Position numbers and translations under genes: made by a program. Below the pieces are notes generated by a model, which made no database searches, had not been told where the DNA came from, and was given only the letters and a program-made list of their open reading frames with translations. DNA of 64,000 nucleotides from a virus, in the IMG/VR virus record IMGVR_UViG_3300029183_000001, positions 1,900-65,899 of that record. One strand, given 5' to 3'. Positions 2,623 to 64,000 of this stretch are shown piece by piece. Position 1 is the stretch's first letter. Each line of letters begins with the position of its first letter.

Positions 2623-2662
2623 TGCTTTTGATTCTTATGAATTAAATAATTGTTTGACGAAC

Positions 2663-2694
2663 CAAATATATAATTTATATATCACTTATACAAA
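2663..2694 (-). promoter_or_regulatory. Bacteroidota sigma-A promoter (TTTG-N20-TATATTTG) overlapped by perfect 17-bp palindrome at 2666-2682
   Basis: + strand caaatata-taatttatatatcacttata-caaa; ATATATAA-T-TTATATAT. Confidence 0.85.
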
Positions 2695-2695
2695 A

Positions 2696-2724
2696 GAAGA
2701 GAGGGAGCCGGGCGACTCCCCCTC
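2696..2724 (-). terminator. intrinsic terminator-like hairpin
   Basis: minus strand gagggggagtcgcccggctccctc followed by tcttctttt. Confidence 0.6.
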
Positions 2725-2785
2725 ACTTTCACTGCATCAACCAAAAAATATCTTAGTATTCCCCCTTAACTTTCAATTGATACAA

Positions 2786-2817
2786 TGAATATATAATTTA
2801 TATAGGAAAGTTGCAAA
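2786..2817 (-). promoter_or_regulatory. promoter (TTTG-N20-TATATTCA) with palindrome at 2789-2805 (1 mismatch)
   Basis: + strand tgaatata-taatttatataggaaagttg-caaa. Confidence 0.75.
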
Positions 2818-2947: not shown

Positions 2948-4375
2948 TCAATGGCCGGATTGCCTCTCCCAATTATCGATCAATAGAATGATGATCGCCA
3001 TTACAGTCAAATCAATCTCTTCATCATGCTTCACATTCGGGTAGGACTTTAATTTTCCTTTGAATGATTCAACCCATGGGCCATCTACAAACATCACTCT
3101 CTTCGCCTGGAAGTACTCAGATACGAACCTCAACAACGCCTCTTTGTCTTGACCTGGATGTTTATACTCCATTGCATTGATCATCCGGTTTCTCAGCAAT
3201 TGAGCGTATGTCAGTCCGGACGCCTTGTTTTCAACGAATATCGGCCCATTCTGGCCTGTTCCCTGTACTAACTTTTGAAACATATCCAGGGCTTCGGTTG
3301 CCTCCATTCTGAAAATACTGCAGTCCATGAACCACAACCGGCCTCCCCATACTTTGACCTTTAAGAATCCATTTGGATCATTCGACTCCTTCTTAGTATA
3401 GGACGTGTCAGCAAACATGATCGTCCTTTGACCCCATACGGCCCGGGGTACAGCGATCTTCGGCACAATCTCAATCCATTCCTCTTTAATGATATTACCC
3501 TCTGCAGATGTCGGGGTCTGCTGATACATGGATCTGAAGGTTTGGGGCCGTTTATCTCTGATATTCTCATATCTCTCCCTGCTGTGCTTCTCTGGCCACA
3601 ACGCCTCCCCAATCTCCCTCTTATCGAACTCATCACCAAAATCACTCTCCTTCAACCCTTCATAAATGACCACGACCCAACCGTCCGGATTGTCTTCACT
3701 CCACACTCCATCTTCCTTCAACAACTGTCCCGCCAAATCATCCTCATGCCATCTGGTCATCATCAAAAGCTGCTGACTGTCATTGTGCAACCTCGTACAG
3801 AAAACATCTGTATACCAATCATAAATCTTCTTCCGCACCTGATCGCTCATGGCTTCCTGTCGATCCTTGATAGGGTCATCAATAATTCCCCAATCGACGG
3901 GGGTTCCCGTCAGTGGTCCATTAACCCCAACCGTCTTGAAAAAACCCTTATGCCCAACAACTTCAAAGATGTTTCCCGTCCTCTTATACGCTCCCCTCGC
4001 ATCCGTGGCAACATTCTTCGCATTTAATTTGGTGTCCGGGAAGATGAGGTTGTAATTATCCCCCATGATGATTCTCTGCACATCACGGTTGATCGATTGA
4101 CTGAGCTCAGCACCATATGAACACAAAGCAATCTTTCGATCTGGATTCTTCCCTAATCCATAACTTGGCAAGATCCTGGAGGCCGCTTCTGTCTTTCCTG
4201 TCTGAGGAGGCTGGAAGAGCATCATTTTCTTGATCTCTCCTTTCTCAAACTTCTCCAGGTGATATATGACACTCAAATGGTGCCAATTGAAATGATAATC
4301 CGGCTTTACTTGCCGAATATAGACCGCTAAGTCATCCTTTGCGAGATAGTTAAGTACATTCTGATCTGTTACCAC
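2948..4375 (-). CDS. terL: terminase large subunit
   Basis: Walker A QPPQTGKT, Walker B IIDDPIKD, MTRWHEDDLAG motif, C-terminal nuclease acidic motifs FADTS and KHDEEID. Confidence 0.93.
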   Translation of the reverse strand: MVTDQNVLNYLAKDDLAVYIRQVKPDYHFNWHHLSVIYHLEKFEKGEIKKMMLFQPPQTGKTEAASRILPSYGLGKNPDRKIALCSYGAELSQSINRDVQRIIMGDNYNLIFPDTKLNAKNVATDARGAYKRTGNIFEVVGHKGFFKTVGVNGPLTGTPVDWGIIDDPIKDRQEAMSDQVRKKIYDWYTDVFCTRLHNDSQQLLMMTRWHEDDLAGQLLKEDGVWSEDNPDGWVVVIYEGLKESDFGDEFDKREIGEALWPEKHSRERYENIRDKRPQTFRSMYQQTPTSAEGNIIKEEWIEIVPKIAVPRAVWGQRTIMFADTSYTKKESNDPNGFLKVKVWGGRLWFMDCSIFRMEATEALDMFQKLVQGTGQNGPIFVENKASGLTYAQLLRNRMINAMEYKHPGQDKEALLRFVSEYFQAKRVMFVDGPWVESFKGKLKSYPNVKHDEEIDLTVMAIIILLIDNWERQSGH

Positions 4376-5261: not shown

Positions 5262-5709
5262 CAGGGATCCGGAGTGCCTTATCTCGGATCTCCTTGAATA
5301 TCTGTTCCTGTAATTCTGGACTCAATGACTGTATGAACAAATTCGCCTCTTCCTGTTTCTCGATATCGGACTTGGATGCTCCCACTTCTACTCTCTGCAC
5401 AGCCTTTCCATCAACTCGATCCAGAAAGTCCCTCAGCATCTTATTATCCGTCATCAACGCCTCTGTATACCTCAGAGTCAAAGCATCTGCATTCACCATT
5501 GCGATCCTGACATTAACCCTCCTTCCTGTTGGGTTTCCTTCTGCAGTGATTTCATCTACCTGGAAGAAGTCCAAAAATGACTCCTCATCAAATACTTTCT
5601 TCTTAATCTTCGTGAGTAGACTTGCCTCTCTATACCTGGGAGGCTGATATTCACTACTGAATCTCTTTCCGATCTTCGCCAACTCCTCCTTAGATCTACC
5701 ACTGGGCAT
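5170..5709 (-). CDS. putative terminase small subunit
   Basis: N-terminal KRFSSEYQP motif typical of small terminases, acidic tail, near terL. Confidence 0.55.
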   Translation of the reverse strand: MPSGRSKEELAKIGKRFSSEYQPPRYREASLLTKIKKKVFDEESFLDFFQVDEITAEGNPTGRRVNVRIAMVNADALTLRYTEALMTDNKMLRDFLDRVDGKAVQRVEVGASKSDIEKQEEANLFIQSLSPELQEQIFKEIRDKALRIPGVEIEDAEIIEDEQEDKEKQGAEEPDVETG

Positions 5710-7288: not shown

Positions 7289-7596
7289 GGTTTAATTATT
7301 TGATTTCCAAGCTCTGTGAGATCAACCATTTTTCCTTTCACCAGGATATGATCACCAAATATCAACTTCACCAATTCCTTCAACTCATTGATCTCTTTTT
7401 TAAGATCCTGGATCTCTCCCATCAACTTCTTATTATCAATCCTTTCCTCCTTCTCTTTGTGCACAACTTCCTTCTGAAAGTGTCTCCACTCATGGGCCGG
7501 CCACTCCGAAACCCTGGTTGCAATATTTGTCATAGCCCCCCCTTTGGTGCCACTGAAGCCTGCTAATACATTGTGATGATTTAATCCCATTATCAA
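7285..7596 (-). CDS. hypothetical coiled-coil protein
   Basis: 103-aa ORF with heptad pattern. Confidence 0.65.
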   Translation of the reverse strand: MIMGLNHHNVLAGFSGTKGGAMTNIATRVSEWPAHEWRHFQKEVVHKEKEERIDNKKLMGEIQDLKKEINELKELVKLIFGDHILVKGKMVDLTELGNQIIKP

Positions 7597-8093
7597 TCTT
7601 TATTATGAAACAATCTCAAATTCACTTTAAACCTGATCGCCTTGTCGGTTCCTCCCCTCAACCACGCAGGCGGTATGATCTCGATAAAATCTCCCTTGTG
7701 GTATAACATCATTCCAATCCCTGCACTCGCTATATTCGCCAACTCATGCCTCACTAAATGAACCCCCGCGGGCATCACTATATAAGAATAATCGGCCCAC
7801 CTCTTATGGTCCAACGCCTGATCAAATACTCCTTTGATATCGGTCAACTTCAACTCAAAATTAACAATCTTCCTCTTCGTCATCACCATTACCACATCAC
7901 TCCTCCTCTTTATCTCAGGTATATGATATTCCGTCAGGATCTTCATTGGCCTCACTTCCTCGGTTTCATACTCCTTATGCCGATAATACTTCTGATTCTT
8001 AAGGAACTCAACGAAGAGATCTTGCATCTTCTTCTCCGTTCCTGGGATGTCCCACCCCAAATCATTCAGATAAGGGCTAAACACCGCCATCAC
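7593..8093 (-). CDS. MmcB-like PD-(D/E)XK nuclease-fold protein
   Basis: RRSDVV...FELKL...DQALDHKRWADYSYIVMP. Confidence 0.65.
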   Translation of the reverse strand: MMAVFSPYLNDLGWDIPGTEKKMQDLFVEFLKNQKYYRHKEYETEEVRPMKILTEYHIPEIKRRSDVVMVMTKRKIVNFELKLTDIKGVFDQALDHKRWADYSYIVMPAGVHLVRHELANIASAGIGMMLYHKGDFIEIIPPAWLRGGTDKAIRFKVNLRLFHNKD

Positions 8094-9871: not shown

Positions 9872-9883
9872 CGGTCCTCGACT

Positions 9884-9914
9884 AAAAGAGGGACTACCGT
9901 AGCAACCCCCCTTC
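9884..9914 (-). terminator. terminator-like hairpin with cUACGg tetraloop
   Basis: minus strand aggggggttgc-tacg-gtagtccctct then ttt. Confidence 0.6.
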
Positions 9915-9938
9915 TACTTTTAATAATCTCATGAACTC

Positions 9939-14043: not shown

Positions 14044-14303
14044 TGTCCAAGCGATTTCTCCATTAATTGTCTGGCAACTTCATATCCTCCTTCACATCTA
14101 CCAATAGCCCTAAATAGAGCACTATCCTTCCCCTCAATTAAAGTTCTGTAATCTCCATCAACCCAAAATCCAATTTTATAATTCCAATCTTTCCCATCAA
14201 GGTTTAGGCTCAACATAAAATACCCATGTGTGCACAAATACACATCTCCTTCTTGAAAAGATTTCCAATGATAATTTGGCCTGCTAAATTCTGCCCGATT
14301 CAT
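14031..14303 (-). CDS. hypothetical protein
   Basis: 90-aa ORF. Confidence 0.65.
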   Translation of the reverse strand: MNRAEFSRPNYHWKSFQEGDVYLCTHGYFMLSLNLDGKDWNYKIGFWVDGDYRTLIEGKDSALFRAIGRCEGGYEVARQLMEKSLGQWAV

Positions 14304-14641: not shown

Positions 14642-14661
14642 CAAATATATAAATTATATAT
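14642..14661 (-). promoter_or_regulatory. TATATTTG promoter with perfect palindrome at 14645-14661
   Basis: + strand caaatatataaattatatat. Confidence 0.8.
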
Positions 14662-23063: not shown

Positions 23064-23093
23064 CTTTTGATAGTTTTAAATTGAGTAATAGGT

Positions 23094-23113
23094 CAAATAT
23101 ATAAATTATATAT
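23094..23113 (-). promoter_or_regulatory. TATATTTG promoter with perfect palindrome at 23097-23113
   Basis: + strand caaatatataaattatatat upstream of the recombination/replication operon. Confidence 0.85.
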
Positions 23114-44643: not shown

Positions 44644-44660
44644 AGGTTGGTTAAATGAGG

Positions 44661-44694
44661 AAAGGGGGCCTAAAACCCCGGATCAGCCCCCCTT
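44661..44694 (-). terminator. hairpin after lipoprotein gene
   Basis: aagggggc/gcccccctt imperfect stem. Confidence 0.45.
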
Positions 44695-44704
44695 CGCGTT
44701 ATGG

Positions 44705-54345: not shown

Positions 54346-55371
54346 TTAAGTTGGCCCACAACTATCCCCAAAGGCTCCAATGGGCATCGTCCATGTTCCG
54401 GTGAATATATCTCCATAATATACTTTGCTTCGAGCCAGGGCCAACATCTCTCCTTCCACACCCTCATACGCCTCTCCCCTGACAATCAACTCTTCTAAGC
54501 TCTCATTTCTCTTAATCGTGACTCCCCATCCCTCTTCCATCGCCATCAACTGGAATCCTATCAACGGACTCACTTTGAATGCGCTTGCCATCTGATTAGC
54601 TCCTCCGAATATACAGAACTGGCAAGAACATCTCGACCAACCCATGTAATAACAGGGATGCACAACCACATTCCATCTTTTGATGATTTCCCAAACCTCT
54701 CCTTCCTTCCAATCTTTAATCGGTCTCCATCTGTCAACATGCCGATCCTTCTTCCCCTTGGTGACTGTACGACTCCTATACTTCCCTTTGACCTTATATC
54801 GAATCGTTCTCTCTCCCTGGAAACGGTTATCCGTTCTATCCTTATGGAATGGGTCATAGCAAGCCCTCTGCGCACTCTCCTCTCCTCTTTCACCTGACAC
54901 AATCAAAATCCTGGAATTATGAAACCTCTTTTGGTTGGCGATCGCAGCACTGTACACATCAATCTTAAGATAAGCAGAGCACCAACGCTGTGTCAGATCT
55001 CCGCTCACCTGTGGGAACATCCTCCGCGTTGATAACTTGCCTCCTCTTCCCCCAACTGTCTCTCTCTTTCCACCTGGGATCTCAAATGTAATCGGGGCTG
55101 TTCTCTCCTCACACCTGGATGCCTCCCCCATAAATCCACCCTCCTTCCAACTGAAATAAATGGGGATCTCAAACGCCTCCGCAAACTTCCGGCAATAATC
55201 CTCAGTACACGCCCAATCCATCAATGTCATCTCTTCGGGCGACCCATCCACCAAGTGATGCCACAACTCAATCTTCTCCTTTGGTATACCCAGTTCCAAT
55301 AAATGAAGAAGGCAAGCGGTTGAATCCTTTCCTCCTGAGAACACCAGTATGTATTTATCATATCCTTTCAC
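54346..55371 (-). CDS. PAPS reductase / PP-loop family protein
   Basis: PP-loop FSGGKDS, RWCSAYLKI, SGERGEESAQRA, RPIKDW...VW, HPCYYMGWSRCSCQFC. Confidence 0.88.
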   Translation of the reverse strand: MKGYDKYILVFSGGKDSTACLLHLLELGIPKEKIELWHHLVDGSPEEMTLMDWACTEDYCRKFAEAFEIPIYFSWKEGGFMGEASRCEERTAPITFEIPGGKRETVGGRGGKLSTRRMFPQVSGDLTQRWCSAYLKIDVYSAAIANQKRFHNSRILIVSGERGEESAQRACYDPFHKDRTDNRFQGERTIRYKVKGKYRSRTVTKGKKDRHVDRWRPIKDWKEGEVWEIIKRWNVVVHPCYYMGWSRCSCQFCIFGGANQMASAFKVSPLIGFQLMAMEEGWGVTIKRNESLEELIVRGEAYEGVEGEMLALARSKVYYGDIFTGTWTMPIGAFGDSCGPT

Positions 55372-55946
55372 GATACCATTATTTTGGGTTCACACCTCAA
55401 TCTCGGCCATTCTGGATGATTCACATGGGCCATAAATCTTCTCGCCATAATGCAGTCAGGGATCAACCCAACCATGATAAACTGCTCCATAATCAATCTC
55501 TTCAAATCTCTCACCGCTCCCCGCACCATGTCCTCCATCCACAATCTCTCTTCCTTCGTGAAGTTCACATTGTTCTTCCTCACTTCGATAAACAAGCTCA
55601 TGCCCTCCTTAATCTGCTTCTCTGCCATTTCTTCTGCTCTGAGTTCGGCAACCATAAAATTCCTGAATCTCTGTCCATGCATCTTGCAGAACCAAAGCTC
55701 TGCAAGTTCAATAAGCTCATCACCTATTGGCTCCCAATACTCTTCTGGCACCATTTCTAAAGTTTCTGGATCAATCACATACATTTGGTCAAAGTTCTCA
55801 TCATCCTTAATCACATAACCTAAAACCTGGGCCGCTTCCCAATTATCAATCTCTGCCTCGAAGCTGATCACTCCGTTATTGAAATACAACGTGTTCTCTG
55901 CGAAGAAGAGGTCATGCTTGTCTGAATTGAATACTAAATTTTTCAT
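55368..55946 (-). CDS. hypothetical protein, first gene after operator-promoter at 55983
   Basis: 192-aa ORF. Confidence 0.75.
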   Translation of the reverse strand: MKNLVFNSDKHDLFFAENTLYFNNGVISFEAEIDNWEAAQVLGYVIKDDENFDQMYVIDPETLEMVPEEYWEPIGDELIELAELWFCKMHGQRFRNFMVAELRAEEMAEKQIKEGMSLFIEVRKNNVNFTKEERLWMEDMVRGAVRDLKRLIMEQFIMVGLIPDCIMARRFMAHVNHPEWPRLRCEPKIMVS

Positions 55947-55982
55947 TGCTCTAATACTTCTGATTTAATTGTTTTGACGAGT

Positions 55983-56014
55983 TAAATATATAATTTATAT
56001 ATCGAAACTGCAAA
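55983..56014 (-). promoter_or_regulatory. promoter (TTTG-N20-TATATTTA) with perfect palindrome at 55986-56002
   Basis: + strand taaatata-taatttatatatcgaaactg-caaa. Confidence 0.85.
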
Positions 56015-56015
56015 T

Positions 56016-56046
56016 AAAAAAGGGAGGAACTTTTTGGCCCCTCCCT
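56016..56046 (-). terminator. intrinsic terminator
   Basis: agggagg/cctccct stem with A-tract on + strand. Confidence 0.65.
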
Positions 56047-56071
56047 CAACCTGAAATCCATATAATGGAAT

Positions 56072-56938
56072 CTATTTTAACGCCTCCGCGAATTCAATCG
56101 TCTCTCTCTCTTTGTACCCGAAATCCTTAACGAATAGATCAACCATGTCATTCTTCCTGTTATTGGAAAAATAGTGAGTCACCATGTTATGGAGACCAAA
56201 TCCATTCATCCCCAATGCCTTACTCTCAATGTCCCATGATTCCATCAATCCGGTCACGATGTTCGTCTTTCGAGTGGAGACCTTTTTTCCATCAATGATC
56301 ACTTCCTTCCCCGTTGCCAACATTCTCACTTGCTTCCTCTCCAACTCAGTCCATCCACCAATGAGATCATAAACATTGCTCCGATTGACTTTGATGTCTG
56401 CCAATCTCTCCAATCTCTGAATGTGAGCGTCTTGATTGACTCTAAACATCTCCATTCTAAAACTGAACTCGCTGACCATTTTCTCGAGTTCCCGGTTGTG
56501 ATTGACTGAAAGGTGCACATCCGTGGATCGAAACATATTATCACATCTGTGGATCTGCCCACTTCCTCCAATTGATAACTTCTTACTCCCATCCCTGGAA
56601 TCAAAAAGAACAACGTGAGACTCAAACGAGTGACCCAAAATGTTGAATCCTTCGGAGCCATTCATCTTCAATGCGGATAGAACTTTTTTCCCACCCTTGT
56701 AAGTTCCATAATGGGCAACCTCATAACCTGTGGACTCAGCCACTCGGTTAGTCAATTCCATGAACTCTTCATTGGTGAATAGACGGTAACCGGGGGTCAT
56801 GTAACTTAGGATATCCCCAGTCTTGTCATTGATCAATGCAACCTTCTTAGGATCGATTATCTCCTTCCCGCTTGGGAGTTGAATTTTGATGGGTGCTTTT
56901 ACTACTTCAAAATCTAAGGTATCGGTGTAATTACTCAT
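56072..56938 (-). CDS. DUF932/DUF945-family protein
   Basis: VLFDSRDGSKKLSIGG...RCDNMF; GMNGFGLHNMVTHY. Confidence 0.8.
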   Translation of the reverse strand: MSNYTDTLDFEVVKAPIKIQLPSGKEIIDPKKVALINDKTGDILSYMTPGYRLFTNEEFMELTNRVAESTGYEVAHYGTYKGGKKVLSALKMNGSEGFNILGHSFESHVVLFDSRDGSKKLSIGGSGQIHRCDNMFRSTDVHLSVNHNRELEKMVSEFSFRMEMFRVNQDAHIQRLERLADIKVNRSNVYDLIGGWTELERKQVRMLATGKEVIIDGKKVSTRKTNIVTGLMESWDIESKALGMNGFGLHNMVTHYFSNNRKNDMVDLFVKDFGYKERETIEFAEALK

Positions 56939-56972
56939 GATTAAAATTTTATGTTTTGACTAATTTGATTTA

Positions 56973-57404
56973 CTAACTTCTGTTTGTCAATTTCATGATC
57001 AAAGCCTCATTATTCGTTCCAACTTGATTGAACAAAAAAACCTCCTCCTCAATGCTTCTCACTGCATCTTCGATGTTATCATGCAAAATTGGGTCATCCA
57101 TCATTGGCTCTCCATAATTGCACACTCCATAAAAATACCCGTTCAAACTTGCGACCTTGATAAATCTACCTCCGCATTCATACAACTTCTCAATCACCTC
57201 GTTCTCATAAGCATGATCATATGTTTCGCACAACATCTCACACAACTCCAAATACTCCTCCTCTTTCATTCTATTGGCCAATTCTTCCAATACTACATTC
57301 ATAACCGTGTCGGCCTGATCCCTTTTGTCATTCATTAATTGATACGTGATGTTCTTTAGAGTCTCAGTATTCTGGGCCTGGACTTTGATTTTTATTTTTT
57401 GCAT
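56973..57404 (-). CDS. hypothetical protein, first gene after operator-promoter at 57436
   Basis: 143-aa ORF. Confidence 0.75.
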   Translation of the reverse strand: MQKIKIKVQAQNTETLKNITYQLMNDKRDQADTVMNVVLEELANRMKEEEYLELCEMLCETYDHAYENEVIEKLYECGGRFIKVASLNGYFYGVCNYGEPMMDDPILHDNIEDAVRSIEEEVFLFNQVGTNNEALIMKLTNRS

Positions 57405-57435
57405 TGCTTAAGATTTAATTGTTTTGACTACGTTG

Positions 57436-57455
57436 AAGATATATAATTTATATAT
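57436..57455 (-). promoter_or_regulatory. promoter -7 variant with perfect palindrome at 57439-57455
   Basis: + strand aagatatataatttatatat. Confidence 0.75.
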
Positions 57456-57547
57456 ACGCCACAAGCATAACTGTAAAAAATATGGGCGGTCCGTGATTCT
57501 TCAATCACACAACACGCGCCCACGAACTTAAGGATGTTAAGACTCTT

Positions 57548-58114
57548 TTATATCTCCACCTGGATCTCCCCTACATTGCGCAGGCTATCGGTGATATATT
57601 CCTTGACTGCTCTTTTAATCGGATTCGTGAAATCCACTACACTTATATCCTTTAGGTTTTTCTCGATCTCAGCAACCGCCTCCTTGATAAAATTGCTTCC
57701 CCGTTTGAATCTTTGATACCAACTCAAAGGAGCTCCAAACTTTTTCTGCAGGGTCGCCAATGCAAACGCGGCACTCTTCGCCTCCTTCTCATCCAATCCC
57801 AAATTCCTCCAATACGCATATAACCCCTGGATGTATAATGATGTACCACCTTTCCCCCTTGATCCTATCTCATATGGGATCTTCTCCGGAGGCACTCCAA
57901 TGCTGTGATAAACTCCATATGTCTTCATGTAAATCAACGCCTCAAACAATGGCATCACTCCACTCACTTCCTGCCTAACTGATTCCCTGAGCGCTCCGGT
58001 CCCCCGCATATTCTTCTCATCGATCTTCGTGACAATGATCTCAATCGCCTCCTCTCCCTTCTTCTTCAATATTTCCTTAAGGTTGATCTCTTGTACTTTC
58101 TCCCTTAGAGTCAT
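57548..58114 (-). CDS. putative neck / tail-completion protein
   Basis: RGTGALRESVR...YGVYHSIG...NFIKEAV pattern of HK97 gp10-like proteins. Confidence 0.55.
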   Translation of the reverse strand: MTLREKVQEINLKEILKKKGEEAIEIIVTKIDEKNMRGTGALRESVRQEVSGVMPLFEALIYMKTYGVYHSIGVPPEKIPYEIGSRGKGGTSLYIQGLYAYWRNLGLDEKEAKSAAFALATLQKKFGAPLSWYQRFKRGSNFIKEAVAEIEKNLKDISVVDFTNPIKRAVKEYITDSLRNVGEIQVEI

Positions 58115-58851
58115 TACCTGGACTTATGAATCATGTTTTTGAACTTCTGGAAGTTCCACGCCACATCTTCAGAATCAACCTCTTTCCTCAATGAGATCGT
58201 CCCGACAATCCCCACCAGGAAATCCCCCATGTGCACATAACCTCCCTTGACATTAGCATTATCCTCCTCCCACATGGCCCATCTTTGATTGCTAATCGCA
58301 TACTGCAGATCCGCACTCTGTATTGGATCATCTCCATCTGCCACTCTGTGAGCAATGTAATTCTCATTCTCCCAACTATACGTAATGCTCTGGCCATCAT
58401 TGATCTTGAAATAGCCGGCCTCTCTGATATAATCGATCACTTGATGCCATAACTTTCTCACATCAATTTTGATCTGCTCCTTATCTCTCTTCCCACAATA
58501 TTTGCACTTATCACAGTCAGCGATATACCTGTCAATGATCGCCAACTCAAACCGGTCTCTATCTTTTGACATCTTTTGGAATGGCCCCAACATCTCAATC
58601 GTCTCCACGTTGAGCGTGCATATAGGGTACAACTCATCCTTATTTCTGATAAAAGCATGATCAACGCTCTTCGGGTCATTGATCATTATTTCAAAATTAG
58701 GAATCCCATCAGCAACCCAACTCTTTACATATGCAAAGCTCTGGATCCTCTGACAAGGGTTGCCCTCCACTATTGGGGAAAACATCACCGCCTCCTTCAC
58801 AAGCCGTATTAAATCCCCCTCATTGAAATCATTAGAACATACAGAACTCAT
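58114..58851 (-). CDS. putative tail terminator protein
   Basis: Coupled to neck gene; FELAIIDRY, DFLVGIVGTISL. Confidence 0.45.
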   Translation of the reverse strand: MSSVCSNDFNEGDLIRLVKEAVMFSPIVEGNPCQRIQSFAYVKSWVADGIPNFEIMINDPKSVDHAFIRNKDELYPICTLNVETIEMLGPFQKMSKDRDRFELAIIDRYIADCDKCKYCGKRDKEQIKIDVRKLWHQVIDYIREAGYFKINDGQSITYSWENENYIAHRVADGDDPIQSADLQYAISNQRWAMWEEDNANVKGGYVHMGDFLVGIVGTISLRKEVDSEDVAWNFQKFKNMIHKSR

Positions 58852-58866
58852 GGAAGTAAAGATAAT

Positions 58867-58900
58867 AAAAATGGGGCGTCATTATGGGAGGTGACGCCCC
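58867..58900 (-). terminator. intrinsic terminator
   Basis: minus strand ggggcgtca-cctcccataa-tgacgcccc-attttt. Confidence 0.75.
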
Positions 58901-58955
58901 GATGGTTTGGAATTATCTAAGTTAGGAGGATTAGATGGCTCGCAAAATATGACTT

Positions 58956-59603
58956 TTAATTGAATTCATCGAGATAAAAGTTGAGACTCTTTTTGCTCTT
59001 CTCAAATACCCAAAAATAACAATGATGTTTCCGAGCATGGCTCTGTTCCTCAATATTCGTCATCCGATTCTTCGCCAAAAGTATAAATAGATCCTTTGGA
59101 TAGAATCCAATTTCAACCGCCATATTCATTACCAGGACATGGCTCATGTACTGCTTCCTTCCATGTACTACATCCTGACATTTGAATATCACTATCCCAC
59201 CAGGAAGCAAGATCCTCCAAAACTCTTTCAGTGAATTGTAATACATCTTCCTTAATTCCGGTGGGTTCTTGAATCTCCCAAACCTCTGCTCAATCTTCCC
59301 CTTGCTCTCTGACTCTCCACCAATGATAAAAGGTGGGTCAAACATGATCGTCTCCAACCAATTGTTTGGGAACATATGGAGATCTTGACTGTCAGCCTCC
59401 AGGACTCCTTCAACCTGGGGCTTGAGATCTGAGATGTGTTGCGGTTCTTGAATTCTTCTCCCTTTATAGAAATTCCCAATTGAATAGGTTGGGTCCAGAT
59501 CAATCCTCTTCTGTGGAGAATGAAGATGGAGGATGTCAGCAATCATCTCCTCCTCATCATAACCAACACTCCTAACAAGATCTCCAAACAACGTATTATT
59601 CAT
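58956..59603 (-). CDS. putative amino (N6-A/N4-C) DNA methyltransferase
   Basis: IDLDPTYSIGNFY, catalytic MFDPPF, RILLPGGIVIFKCQD. Confidence 0.75.
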   Translation of the reverse strand: MNNTLFGDLVRSVGYDEEEMIADILHLHSPQKRIDLDPTYSIGNFYKGRRIQEPQHISDLKPQVEGVLEADSQDLHMFPNNWLETIMFDPPFIIGGESESKGKIEQRFGRFKNPPELRKMYYNSLKEFWRILLPGGIVIFKCQDVVHGRKQYMSHVLVMNMAVEIGFYPKDLFILLAKNRMTNIEEQSHARKHHCYFWVFEKSKKSLNFYLDEFN

Positions 59604-59847
59604 CAGCCGCGATTATTGATAATATGATCTCTGAGCATTGTTTAGGGATGGACTGCCTGTCCATGTCGAATAACAGCGCAGACGGGAACAATTCATGTAT
59701 CCTATTTTTCTTCCACCCTGTGAAAATATATTCCAACTTATACGGATCACGCGGTATCATTTTCCTGGACTTGCTGAAAATGAAGCATCCCTTAGATCCA
59801 TACACCATAACCAAATTCCTCCCTTCTATTGGTTTTACTACTATCAT
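59596..59847 (-). CDS. hypothetical protein
   Basis: 83-aa ORF, coupled. Confidence 0.6.
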   Translation of the reverse strand: MIVVKPIEGRNLVMVYGSKGCFIFSKSRKMIPRDPYKLEYIFTGWKKNRIHELFPSALLFDMDRQSIPKQCSEIILSIIAADE

Positions 59848-60104
59848 AATTTAGGTTTGTCATTCCATGGTAAACTCCTCCACAAAATATCTCTCACTTC
59901 TGACTTATAAAAATATCTCCTCTCTCCCTTCGGAAACCACCTCCCATTCACTCTCATCCTGAACCTGGGCGCGCCCTTCCAACCTCTCTCCTCCCCCCAT
60001 AACTCACAATCAAACAATTCAACCCTATGACTCTTCTTGTCTCCCTTTGCCTCTATTTTGAGCAAAAACGTAATTCTCGGTTTCCTCTTTTCGCTCACAA
60101 TCAA
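59844..60104 (-). CDS. hypothetical protein
   Basis: 86-aa ORF. Confidence 0.65.
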   Translation of the reverse strand: MIVSEKRKPRITFLLKIEAKGDKKSHRVELFDCELWGEERGWKGAPRFRMRVNGRWFPKGERRYFYKSEVRDILWRSLPWNDKPKL

Positions 60105-60180
60105 CTGTTTATCAGCAAAATAAACTGGGCTCTATCTGCTGTGCTACACTTGCCGCGGTTGCACATGACAGCTGCTCGGA

Positions 60181-60492
60181 TTAACAACCTGGCCAACTCA
60201 TGAACACATTATAATTCCTGAATCTCCACACATGCAAAAATCCAATCTTGATCAAATACGCATCCGTCTTTCCAAATGATGTTTGATTCAATCTCTTAAT
60301 CCAGATCTTGAAACTCCTTCTCCAAAAAAACTTCCACACTGGCCGGTCATCAGTCCGGATCTTCCTTCTGTGATATCCCCACGGATCTTCCAGGAATAAC
60401 GCTTTTAATCTTTTGACATATTCCGGTCCTGGGTGATTCTCCCAATCACACCCGGATCTCCTCGGCTTTAATTCATGTCTTGGATTCTTCAT
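60181..60492 (-). CDS. hypothetical basic protein
   Basis: 103-aa ORF; its ATG overlaps the TGA of the -1 frame chaperone extension. Confidence 0.6.
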   Translation of the reverse strand: MKNPRHELKPRRSGCDWENHPGPEYVKRLKALFLEDPWGYHRRKIRTDDRPVWKFFWRRSFKIWIKRLNQTSFGKTDAYLIKIGFLHVWRFRNYNVFMSWPGC

Positions 60493-61720
60493 ATCTGTGC
60501 ATTTTCTATACTCATTAGCTTCAAAGCATTTTCAAATATGCTCCTCTTCACTGATTCAATCGGCTTCTCATTACCCACCTGGAAGTACGCCCCCTTCAAT
60601 AATCTCACATAAATAGAATCATAATCTATCCTCTCAAAGATATCACGATTCATCCTCCGCATCACCTCCTTCCTCTTCGCGAACGACTTTTGGTCCCCCG
60701 AGTAGTTCTTCTCTTCCGGCGGAGTAAAAAACCATTTGTTCTTGGGATCTTCTTTGAGGGCTTCCCAAAACCGTTCAAAAAAAAAAGAATATCCAACCCA
60801 TCACACATATTGATGCAGGGAGCAATCTTGTCATCTCCTCGATATCCACTAAAGAACTCAACTCTCTCGTCCAACCAAATATCAAAACTCTTATCATCTG
60901 CAGGCATTTCATCCCAACCTCTGATAATTGAAAACAATGAGATCTTAGTGATACACTTCATAAATGAAAAATGCGCCCTCGCTTTCCATCCATCGACTCC
61001 CTCATATTTCTCATCCTCCGGTATGCCATCAATCAACTTCGTATATCGGTACTGGATCTTAAGGGACTCGACCACCTGTTGAGTCGTGATGAATGGTAAC
61101 ACTTTCTTCTCCATCACCTTCTTCACATAGATGACAGGGATCTTGCATTTCTGCTTCCTGTGCCTATACTTGCAATCCTGTCCCTTTGATCTGAGCCTGG
61201 GTTCATACATCGTGATCATGTTAATCGCCCTCTTGTAAAGCTCTGAGGCCGTCATGACGATCATTTCTCCCGACTCATCAACCCCAATCTCCTCATTCCA
61301 ATCTTCTCTTAACTCCTTCATCAAGACTCCCATTGGGATCAACTTAACCAACTCCATATCAACCTCGTAGAATTCACTTATGAAACCCTGTACCAATTGT
61401 ATGTGCACATCCTCCCTGTAGATGTCCTTCACCGCATCACCGATCGTCATGGATTTTTTCTCCCCCTTCTCATCCTGGAAACTGATTCTCCTTCTGTGAA
61501 ACTTCTTACTCATCGCCTCACTGAGGCTGATTTTCTTCCTCCTGCAGAACTCATCAATGGCCAATTCTGAATCCAACCCCTTCCTCAAATATTGGTTGAT
61601 ATGATCCAATTGAAAGATCCCCACGATGTAGGTGTCGAAACCAATGTCCCTAAATGTCAAAGGCACCTGAATCTCTCCAAGTACCTTCTTACCCTTTAAT
61701 AATTCAAAATTTACTTTCAC
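60489..61720 (-). CDS. tail assembly chaperone GT-like -1 frameshift product (about 410 aa)
   Basis: -1 frame stays open for 96 codons (FERFWEALKEDP...SIFENALKLMSIENAQI) and stops on the next gene's ATGA. Confidence 0.65.
60662..61720 (-). CDS. putative tail assembly chaperone (G-like, 0 frame)
   Basis: 352 aa ending in DGLDILFF at a T10 run. Confidence 0.6.
   Translation of the reverse strand: MKVNFELLKGKKVLGEIQVPLTFRDIGFDTYIVGIFQLDHINQYLRKGLDSELAIDEFCRRKKISLSEAMSKKFHRRRISFQDEKGEKKSMTIGDAVKDIYREDVHIQLVQGFISEFYEVDMELVKLIPMGVLMKELREDWNEEIGVDESGEMIVMTASELYKRAINMITMYEPRLRSKGQDCKYRHRKQKCKIPVIYVKKVMEKKVLPFITTQQVVESLKIQYRYTKLIDGIPEDEKYEGVDGWKARAHFSFMKCITKISLFSIIRGWDEMPADDKSFDIWLDERVEFFSGYRGDDKIAPCINMCDGLDILFFLNGFGKPSKKIPRTNGFLLRRKRRTTRGTKSRSRRGRR
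60777..60786 (-). other. slippery sequence T TTT TTT (T10)
   Basis: minus strand GAT ATT CTT TTT TTT TTG AAC. Confidence 0.65.
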
Positions 61721-61723
61721 TGA

Positions 61724-62440
61724 TTAGGACGCCAACTCATTTACTTTTTCCTGGATGGCCTGTTTAGCTGCCTTGATTCCATTTTCTAATCTCTGTGACT
61801 CATCCCAATTCCTTAGATCAATCCGGCTCTCTTCTGGAATAAATTCATTGACAAAATCAACCAATCCTCCCAAACCTCCAAACTCCTCAACCAATTGGTC
61901 ATCTGTCTTCTTAACCAGATCATTAAAGATCTCTGCTTCCTGTACCCCTCCATCAACCTTGTTCTTCTCCTCCTTCCTCTCCGCTCGATTCTCAAACGAA
62001 TTCTTCTGAACCTGCATCTCTCCATTAGCAGTACTCGCAGCCGCTTCCTGACTTTTTTTTTGCGCATCGGAGAATTCTTGCTTGCTGTAAGTCTGTACTT
62101 GATAATTCCGATTAGATCTGCTCGTATGAACAACCCCATCTGTACTTCCTCCCCCCTGGACTGTCATCTTTGCCACTGGCGCTGATTTACTACTGGAAAA
62201 ACTTTTCAAATTGTTCTGTTTCAATTGGTGGATCTCTTGATGCATATCCCTTCCATTGAACCCATCGAAATTCCTGGTAATCCAATTGGTAAACTGATCA
62301 CTCATGTGTGAACTGTGATCAACCGCTTCCCACTCCATCACCTTCACCATAAGAGACTTCGCAGACTTGATCATATCTGCCTTAATCTGATTCGGGGTCC
62401 TTTGGGCTTTCGCCTTCTTCTTTGTTCTTGTTGTTGCCAT
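61724..62440 (-). CDS. hypothetical protein
   Basis: 238-aa ORF upstream of chaperone. Confidence 0.75.
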   Translation of the reverse strand: MATTRTKKKAKAQRTPNQIKADMIKSAKSLMVKVMEWEAVDHSSHMSDQFTNWITRNFDGFNGRDMHQEIHQLKQNNLKSFSSSKSAPVAKMTVQGGGSTDGVVHTSRSNRNYQVQTYSKQEFSDAQKKSQEAAASTANGEMQVQKNSFENRAERKEEKNKVDGGVQEAEIFNDLVKKTDDQLVEEFGGLGGLVDFVNEFIPEESRIDLRNWDESQRLENGIKAAKQAIQEKVNELAS

Positions 62441-62452
62441 TTAGTTAATTTG

Positions 62453-62480
62453 AAAAACCGGGGCGACTTTCATCACCCCG
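62453..62480 (-). terminator. intrinsic terminator with GAAA tetraloop
   Basis: minus strand cggggtgat-gaaa-gtcgccccg-gttttt. Confidence 0.8.
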
Positions 62481-62565
62481 ATTATTGTTCGTCAAAACAA
62501 TTATAATCACAAGCATCAACGATCCACCAGGACGGTGGATATAAAGCTGAACGCTTAGATATAAC
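62453..62565 (-). ncRNA. candidate small regulatory RNA with three hairpins, antisense to phage 5' leaders
   Basis: Bounded by promoter at 62570 and terminator at 62453; contains taattgttttgacgaac complementary to leaders at 2647, 55966, 57416 and 63911. Confidence 0.55.
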
Positions 62566-62569
62566 TCTT

Positions 62570-62589
62570 CAAATATATAAATTATATAC
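62570..62589 (-). promoter_or_regulatory. TATATTTG promoter with palindrome at 62573-62589 (1 mismatch)
   Basis: + strand caaatatataaattatatac. Confidence 0.8.
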
Positions 62590-63124
62590 TATATGTCTTC
62601 TCTTCTGGTCTTTTGATTTTAGATAAATCCAATTGAACTGTAACGGCCACATCACTTAAATTCGGCCAACTCCCTACATGTTTAAATTTGAAATCCTGAT
62701 AATTCAACTTCGCTGTCTCATCATCAAAGATCTCCAACATGATTGCCAATGCCAATTGCGCAGGACCGGAGCCCCCATATCCCCAATTGAATCCAGTGGG
62801 CGAATGCCTCCTATAAGTCAAACTTCTGCCAATATTCAGCTTCTTCCCCATCAACTCAACAGTACGCTCTCCATCATCCTCAATCGTTCCTCTGATCCAT
62901 ATTCTCAACACTCCCTTATTCCACCCCTTCTCCAAATTATCGAGACTGGTTAATGCCCCTGTGTACTTATCCCACGTCTTCCATTCTCCTCCACAACTAT
63001 ACACAACCCATGCCGCATTCTTCGATGGGTGAACCTCTTTGACAATTCCCGGTGAACTATCTCCAAATGTTGAGGTATAAGTCACCTTATCTCCTCTCTT
63101 TAATTCCGATTTATTTACCATCAC
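62582..63124 (-). CDS. DUF6166-type protein with N-terminal SH3-like domain
   Basis: RRHSPTGFNWGYGGSGPAQLALAIML. Confidence 0.75.
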   Translation of the reverse strand: MMVNKSELKRGDKVTYTSTFGDSSPGIVKEVHPSKNAAWVVYSCGGEWKTWDKYTGALTSLDNLEKGWNKGVLRIWIRGTIEDDGERTVELMGKKLNIGRSLTYRRHSPTGFNWGYGGSGPAQLALAIMLEIFDDETAKLNYQDFKFKHVGSWPNLSDVAVTVQLDLSKIKRPEEKTYSI

Positions 63125-63299
63125 TTTTAGATTTATTCCAATTCAAATACTGCTCCCAATATTCCGGCCACGTCTCTTTAATCTTAACCAGATTGAACGG
63201 ATCAGCCGACATCACACAAGATCCCAAACATCTCACGAAACTCCCTCCATAGGAAATCATATTCTCTCCAACCATCAACTGTTCTTCTCTACTGATCAT
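63111..63299 (-). CDS. small conserved-type phage protein
   Basis: YGGSFVRCLG...ADPFNLVKIKETWPEYW. Confidence 0.75.
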   Translation of the reverse strand: MISREEQLMVGENMISYGGSFVRCLGSCVMSADPFNLVKIKETWPEYWEQYLNWNKSKSDGK

Positions 63300-63310
63300 A
63301 ACCTGGAATT

Positions 63311-63343
63311 AAAAGGGGCTGGCCTCACTACAAGCCAACCCCC
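63311..63343 (-). terminator. terminator-like hairpin
   Basis: ggggctggc/gccaacccc stem with A-tract on + strand. Confidence 0.55.
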
Positions 63344-63500
63344 TGTGTAAAGAGCAAAAAAACTGTCTATTATCATCCTGGGATCTCATCCCCATTCTTG
63401 ATTCACTTTTGAAAATTGGAGCGGATCTATCCATTGACCTATCCAACTCCAATTCAGTTCTGATTTAAAATAAGCTATAAAAATAACTCTTTCACGTCCG

Positions 63501-63545
63501 AAAAAAGGAAGAGGGCGTTTGGTCGGCCACATCCCTCTCTCCTTT
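63501..63545 (-). terminator. terminator-like hairpin after SH3-fold gene
   Basis: aggaagaggg/ccctctctcct imperfect stem with A6 tract. Confidence 0.55.
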
Positions 63546-63560
63546 CTACTTAAAACAAAA

Positions 63561-63905
63561 TTACGGACTGGTGATCGCCTCTCTATTCGAGACCTCAACA
63601 CAAATATAATTTTCGATTCTGAAGCTCCTAAAAGCCCCTCTCATCATATCCCAATACGTGATCACATCTCTCACCTCTCTCTCACTCCCTTTGAATTCAT
63701 AATCAATCAAATCTTCCTTCAACGTTCCCAATGCCTGCCTCGTCGTGTTGGTTGATTTCTTGACATACCAAAACTCCTTCATCCCGGTTTTCATTTCCTG
63801 GATGATTCGGTACTTCATCCATGCTCTTTTCAAGCACTCAGAAAAGGTATCAAACAACCCCTTCTTCGAATATGCCCATGCATCTTTAAATATCTCTGAT
63901 CTCAT
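63561..63905 (-). CDS. WYL_2/DUF2693-type SH3-fold protein
   Basis: CLKRAW...FWYVKKS...RQALGTL...VITYWDMMRGAFRSFR. Confidence 0.8.
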   Translation of the reverse strand: MRSEIFKDAWAYSKKGLFDTFSECLKRAWMKYRIIQEMKTGMKEFWYVKKSTNTTRQALGTLKEDLIDYEFKGSEREVRDVITYWDMMRGAFRSFRIENYICVEVSNREAITSP

Positions 63906-63926
63906 GACTCAATTGTTTTGACATAC

Positions 63927-63958
63927 GCAATATATAAAATATATATTATCGCTCCAAG
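63927..63958 (-). promoter_or_regulatory. promoter (CTTG-N20-TATATTGC) with palindrome at 63930-63946 (1 mismatch)
   Basis: + strand gcaatata-taaaatatatattatcgctc-caag. Confidence 0.75.
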
Positions 63959-64000
63959 CATAAATACAAATGCCCCTAAGAAAATTCATTCTCAGAGGCA

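Follow-up and report, generated by a model that had tools for sequence, protein, structure and literature searches.

An uncultured aquatic phage, probably of Bacteroidota, carries a promoter-to-terminator unit of about 110 nt that holds a backwards copy of the short leader preceding four or five of its own genes, and one distant relative keeps the same layout with a different, matching tag. On this evidence, which comes from sequence alone, the unit is probably a real RNA regulator. The reading favored here, with a probability of about 0.6, is that of an attenuated leader-derived antisense RNA that represses a set of the phage's own leaders.

The DNA analysed, hereafter the window, is a stretch of 64,000 nt from a 69.8-kb single-contig genome (phage A) in which all genes lie on the minus strand. 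The genome encodes a large terminase, a tape measure protein, a helicase and methyltransferases, so it is that of a tailed phage. Bacteroidota-type -7 boxes (TAnnTTTG) stand in front of many operons, with nine intergenic boxes, and 29 on the coding strand against 11 on the other. Ten copies of a 17-bp AT palindrome overlap such boxes. The sequence comes from an aquatic metagenome, and the only runs found to contain it are two DNA metagenome runs, which show no difference between them. The relevant features are as follows.

62573-62589 (minus): 17-bp AT palindrome, operator-like, overlapping the promoter; the stop codon of the upstream DUF6166 gene (62582-62584) lies inside it.
62570-62577 (minus): perfect Bacteroidota-type -7 box, TATATTTG, one of the nine intergenic TAnnTTTG boxes, with the start site inferred at about 62560-62566.
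62506-62560 (minus): hairpin 1, a long irregular stem with the apical helix ATCCACC/GTCCT/GGTGGAT (62522-62540).
62489-62514 (minus): anti-leader segment, a 26-nt inverted copy of the whole class-I leader module, with the core AATTGTTTTGAC at 62491-62502.
62484-62501 (minus): hairpin 2, a weak 7-bp A/U-rich stem with a UGAC loop that presents part of the anti-leader and abuts the terminator (loop unpaired probability 0.96-1.0).
62453-62483 (minus): intrinsic-terminator-like hairpin with a 12-bp stem, a GAAA loop and then five U.
62445-62516 (minus): 23-codon ORF that runs across the terminator, judged incidental.
61724-62440 (minus): gene B, an orphan of 238 aa, first gene of the operon that depends on read-through of the terminator.
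63900-63922 (minus): putative target leader of the WYL_2 gene (63561-63905); the predicted duplex (-25.0 kcal/mol) covers the AUG at 63903-63905.
57405-57428 (minus): putative target leader of the 143-aa gene that heads the DUF932 operon (-25.0 kcal/mol).
55955-55980 (minus): putative target leader of the 192-aa gene, which is followed by a PAPS-reductase-like gene (-28.1 kcal/mol).
2637-2662 (minus): putative target leader of the 177-aa gene behind terL; the core lacks one A, but the flanks match further (-21.1 kcal/mol).
56936-56961 (minus): translation start region of DUF932, with a 9-nt core match and no promoter; a weaker site (-16.4 kcal/mol), but conserved in the relative.

The observation made in an earlier note, that a promoter and a GAAA-tetraloop terminator enclose an RNA antisense to the 5' leaders of several other transcripts, is confirmed and is stronger than reported. 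The motif GTCAAAACAATT is exact at three minus-strand leaders, 55967-55978, 57417-57428 and 63911-63922, and once inverted at 62491-62502(+). There are no further copies with one mismatch or none, and none in the other 5.8 kb of the genome. The match lengths of 15, 13 and 12 nt, the bulged 10+7-nt match at 2646-2662 and the 9-mer at 56952-56960 before DUF932 were all reproduced. With a start site at 62560-62564, the RNA is predicted to fold into three hairpins (z -6.4). Some details required correction. The note placed the seed UUGACG in the loop of the middle hairpin, but this hairpin is AUUGUUU/GAACAAU with a UGAC loop, so that only 4 nt of the seed are in the loop, and with a longer 5' end part of the anti-motif pairs elsewhere. 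In addition, a generic consensus scan for terminators did not list the terminator hairpin.

The complementarity is also longer than the 12-16 nt first described. The sense copies belong to a two-block leader module, consisting of GTCAAAACAATT, then 3-7 nt, then TC-A/T-N-A/G-AG, often followed by CA and ATG, and the segment 62489-62514 is an inverted copy of both blocks. Duplexes were computed on 26-nt windows, since unrestricted RNAduplex runs gave meaningless long duplexes. The four leaders give local duplexes of 22-24 bp at -21 to -28 kcal/mol, which in two cases reach or cover the start codon. The net energy after opening both RNAs is about -10 to -13 kcal/mol, whereas leaders without the tag give +6 to +18 kcal/mol. 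Part of the anti-leader is, however, buried in stems, and opening costs 6-11 kcal/mol in phage A. The flank beyond the core pairs better than random 14-mers in three leaders (P 0.003-0.015), although these three are related to one another and do not count independently.

Nor is the unit a free-standing gene. The U tract ends 12 nt, and the stem 16 nt, before the gene B ATG, and no -7 box lies between them; gene B has no other promoter. The promoter is of the same class as two operon promoters: the stretch 62569-62588 is identical over 20 nt to 23093-23112 and over 19 nt to 14642-14660, and those promoters (at 23097 and 14645) drive operons through leaders of 17-30 nt. By contrast, the box at 62570-62577 lies 129 nt from the next start codon, against 17-41 nt for the six other boxes that directly precede a start codon. 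The unit is therefore the attenuated 5' leader of the gene B operon, whatever else it does. By sequence it has its own promoter and a Rho-independent terminator, but this phage has several terminators directly in front of genes, and a promoter-terminator pair does not by itself prove a discrete small RNA. Such terminator-like hairpins, with no promoter after them, lie at 58852-58955, 9872-9935, 44644-44704 and 63453-63560, which suggests leaky or regulated termination inside operons, possibly an antitermination strategy. A second promoter-to-terminator unit of about 95 nt lies behind terL (2686-2805, minus strand), with a palindrome promoter at 2789, a 13-bp hairpin and a terminator (2789 to 2690), followed directly by the next promoter at 2666; no ORF and no recurrent complementary target were found for it.

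One distant relative was available for comparison. Gene B is an orphan in a word-indexed search of 5.8 billion proteins, but an exhaustive HMMER search found one protein (P0122) with 29% identity over its full length. The contig that encodes it (L259, extended by the contigs L261 and L262) is syntenic with phage A, carrying NinG, M10 peptidase, amidase, ParB-N, TAGT, TerL, WYL_2 (45% identity), DUF932, the gene B homologue, a homologue of the next gene (40%) and the tape measure. Upstream of its gene B lie a TATATTTG box, about 100 nt of leader unalignable with that of phage A, a terminator hairpin with six U, then 22 nt without a -7 box and the ATG. The RNA is predicted to fold into the same layout (z -3.3), with a GC hairpin, a weak hairpin and a directly abutting terminator. 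The leaders carry a different tag, GTCAATAACA, which is exact four times in sense in 33 kb, each copy 0-12 nt before a start codon and one directly on the DUF932 ATG, while a fifth copy in a further leader has one mismatch. The tag is inverted exactly once, at L259 7922-7932, partly in the loop of the weak hairpin and 1-6 nt before the terminator. The second block (TAACACA) is also present in the inverted copy. Predicted duplexes at the five sites are -18.6 to -22.4 kcal/mol, with opening costs of 5-16 kcal/mol. Seed and targets have thus changed together, although this covariation rests on two genomes and a single relative lineage.

Other searches for relatives gave nothing useful. These included blastn and tblastn against isolate phages, and IMG/VR searches by gene B, by the gene B and next-gene alignments, and by DNA patterns. 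TerL relatives in IMG/VR are at most 52% identical and lack both motifs. A pattern scan of metagenomes gave 59 hits, all chance matches without the palindrome, one of them (L092) inside a coding region; the palindrome alone hits AT-rich giant viruses, and a pattern search of genome contigs gave five chance hits. P0122 has no further relatives in the protein index, and DUF6166 homologues are only domain-level, their contigs having no such unit.

In view of these findings the interpretation in the note, a trans-acting RNA that could silence a set of dispersed operons, is supported, with the refinements that the unit is an operon leader and that pairing would extend over the whole leader. Two conditions that the note had set for rejecting its reading were examined, and neither was fulfilled: the only homologous locus found keeps an inverted copy that follows the changed tag, and the 23-codon ORF is no better than chance. 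In the model, transcription starts at the -7 box and most transcripts stop at the hairpin/U5 terminator just before gene B, giving an RNA of about 110 nt with a 5' GC-rich hairpin, a weak A/U hairpin and the terminator. The weak hairpin and the 12 nt before it carry the 26-nt reverse complement of the module that heads at least four other transcripts and, in part, the DUF932 start region. This RNA, and possibly the same segment in read-through mRNA, would pair with those leaders from about +1 to the start codon, blocking ribosome access and perhaps creating a double-strand RNase substrate, so that the tagged genes would be turned down together. The analysis itself establishes the sequence anatomy, the complementarity and its energies, and the conservation of the architecture with a matching changed tag in one distant relative, while the start site, the efficiency of termination, the existence and abundance of the RNA, and the repressive outcome are inferred.

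An alternative is that the tag is an asymmetric DNA operator, or a roadblock site, for a phage protein, the copy at 62491-62502 being one more site that happens to lie in the other orientation. Dispersed asymmetric operators of this kind are known for the P1 C1 repressor. The perfect conservation of the 12-nt core while the flanks drift, the location of four sense copies 7-10 nt after the palindrome/-7 box, and the concerted change of all copies between the two phages, as would be expected for the sites of one protein, are in keeping with this view. Nevertheless, it is considered unlikely, because three observations favor RNA pairing. First, the DUF932 copies lie inside operons without a promoter in either phage (two sites per phage pair), and in L259 the copy sits between a stop codon and the start codon, overlapping them. 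All ten sense copies lie within 27 nt upstream of a start codon, while their distance to promoters varies between the phages. Second, the spacing between the blocks differs between the inverted copy and the leaders, 4 against 3 or 7 nt in phage A and 0 against 3 nt in L259, which a duplex with a bulge tolerates and a rigid protein site would not. Third, in alignments of the inverted copy with each leader all 14 transition differences, in nine independent columns, leave a G·U pair on the transcribed strands and none leaves A·C, with 11 transversions. Under a symmetric null the 9:0 column count has P of about 0.002, but the asymmetry is weaker (P about 0.02) once the A/C-rich composition of the tag is allowed for. 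Duplexes on the real strands sum to -233.8 kcal/mol, against -192.8 on the mirror strands. Moreover, the inverted copy stays immediately before the terminator, within a hairpin, in both phages.

Concerted change could also result from gene conversion among repeats. Thus the inverted copy might be a neutral relic of an inverted duplication kept similar by conversion, or mark a DNA inversion site, and it does look like a complete copy of a leader, closest to the 57404 leader. This is very unlikely, since it is retained at the same position in a relative whose proteins are only 29-45% identical, while the rest of the leader is unalignable, and since contigs of the two samples are identical, with no variants, joints or rearrangement, so that DNA inversion is rejected.

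The unit might instead be purely a cis-acting attenuator of the gene B operon, with abundant tagged mRNAs pairing next to the terminator to set read-through and the short RNA having no effect on them. Gene B has no other promoter in either phage, the anti-tag ends 1-9 nt before the terminator stem in both, and the link to gene B is conserved although neighboring genes are rearranged. However, the paired segment does not overlap the G+C-rich terminator stem, and no convincing alternative antiterminator helix was seen, by inspection of the folds only. Pairing of 22-24 bp over start codons would be expected to affect the targets whichever way control runs, and this reading is therefore held to be improbable. 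A two-way RNA switch is not excluded but remains speculative: the anti-tag RNA would silence the tagged (early or accessory) mRNAs, and these in turn would set read-through into the gene B operon, timing the switch between gene sets by RNA alone. Antitermination of the HK022 put or lambda nut type has no support beyond the hairpin and the basic N-terminus of gene B. The anti-motif as a -7 box for gene B, and the sense motifs as divergent promoters, were also considered and dropped; the box has T at the conserved A, and the transcript would start inside the terminator region.

Attenuation of the pyrBI type, in which a ribosome translating a leader peptide across the terminator prevents hairpin formation, is very doubtful. 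Both phages have an ATG-initiated ORF that crosses the terminator and stops just before gene B, of 23 codons ending 4 nt upstream in phage A and of 20 codons ending 17 nt upstream in L259. Shuffled upstream sequence, however, gives such an ORF in 37% and 43% of trials, the two peptides are unrelated, sharing only their first two residues (ML), and both start codons lie in structured, G/U-rich context, unlike the A-rich leaders of the real genes.

No Rfam family matches the unit: there was no hit at gathering score in the window, and none to the C4 (RF01695) or IsrK (RF01394) phage antisense RNA models at E up to 5 in 55000-64000. By mechanism, among the nearest systems is the c4 antisense RNA of phages P1 and P7 (immI; Citron & Schuster 1990, as cited in PMC8198154), which is likewise made from the 5' part of an operon and uses short segments to pair with the ribosome-binding region of phage mRNA and shut it off. 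c4 acts on the downstream genes of its own operon (icd-ant), in a different host group, whereas here gene B's own start region has no tag, the only strong self-match of the leader is the terminator, and the putative targets are four to five other transcripts. The CI RNA of satellite phage P4 (seqA/seqB/seqC immunity) is also derived from an operon leader, has repeated complementary sites and is linked to transcription termination, but its partner sites lie in the same leader transcript and cause premature termination, rather than at the start regions of dispersed operons. Lambda PreS/LPR1 (bioRxiv 10.1101/2024.10.31.621285) is a phage-encoded trans-acting base-pairing RNA that was detected in Hfq-based RIL-seq and regulates host genes such as dnaN, whereas the evident targets here are the phage's own tagged leaders; the presumed host phylum is not known to possess Hfq or ProQ. 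The T4 RegA translational repressor and RegB endoribonuclease follow the same logic, one factor recognizing a short element in the start regions of many early mRNAs and turning them off together, but are proteins. Finally, in leaders such as those of the riboswitch-derived SreA/SreB RNAs of Listeria, the terminated leader doubles as a trans-acting RNA while read-through expresses the downstream genes; those RNAs are not phage-encoded, and no ligand-sensing domain is evident here.

Very little is known about how phages of Bacteroidota time their genes, or about RNA regulators in this phylum. A single leader-derived RNA that recognizes a shared tag on several of the phage's own mRNAs would be a compact way to switch a gene set off, would be an RNA counterpart of T4 RegA/RegB, and would extend the P1 c4/P4 CI principle from one operon to a dispersed regulon. 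The two phages offer a natural pair of presumably non-cross-reacting tags and anti-tags, which makes the idea directly testable with reporters and could serve as an orthogonal control element in Bacteroidota.

The palindrome promoters of phage A fall into two orientation classes, with centre AAATT (2666, 2789, 9942, 55986 and 57439) or AATTT (14645, 23097 and 62573); the AATTT class has a perfect -7 box and no leader tag, while three of the five AAATT promoters carry the tag. In L259 the tagged promoters use a different operator-like element, a direct repeat of TTTGTTTATC, instead of the AT palindrome (742-802, 3214-3252, 5617-5677 and 14123-14183), and one inverted copy of that element (7853-7862) lies just upstream of the anti-leader's -7 box. 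The anti-leader promoter of L259 is preceded (7360-7865) by a tRNA-like gene (7462-7533, with an unusual anticodon loop) and about 330 nt of ORF-free sequence, with no Rfam match.

Gene B and P0122 share a basic N-terminus (TT-R/K-T/R-KKK) and a confidently predicted helical C-terminal third, the structure model of gene B being otherwise poor (pLDDT 56) and unsuited to a structure search. The first tagged gene encodes the WYL_2 protein, described by Pfam as having an Sm-like SH3 barrel, and is tagged in the relative too. Directly upstream of the WYL_2 promoter, just outside the window, a stretch of about 1 kb without ORFs follows the palindrome promoter at window coordinate 64856. This stretch (genome C1 about 65908-66378, minus strand, equal to window coordinates about 64009-64479; 2009-2479 in locus L134) matches the full length of the Rfam GOLLD model (RF02032) at 49.5 bits and E 7e-11, below the gathering score of 150, and has a tRNA-Asn(GTT) embedded (L134 2296-2374).
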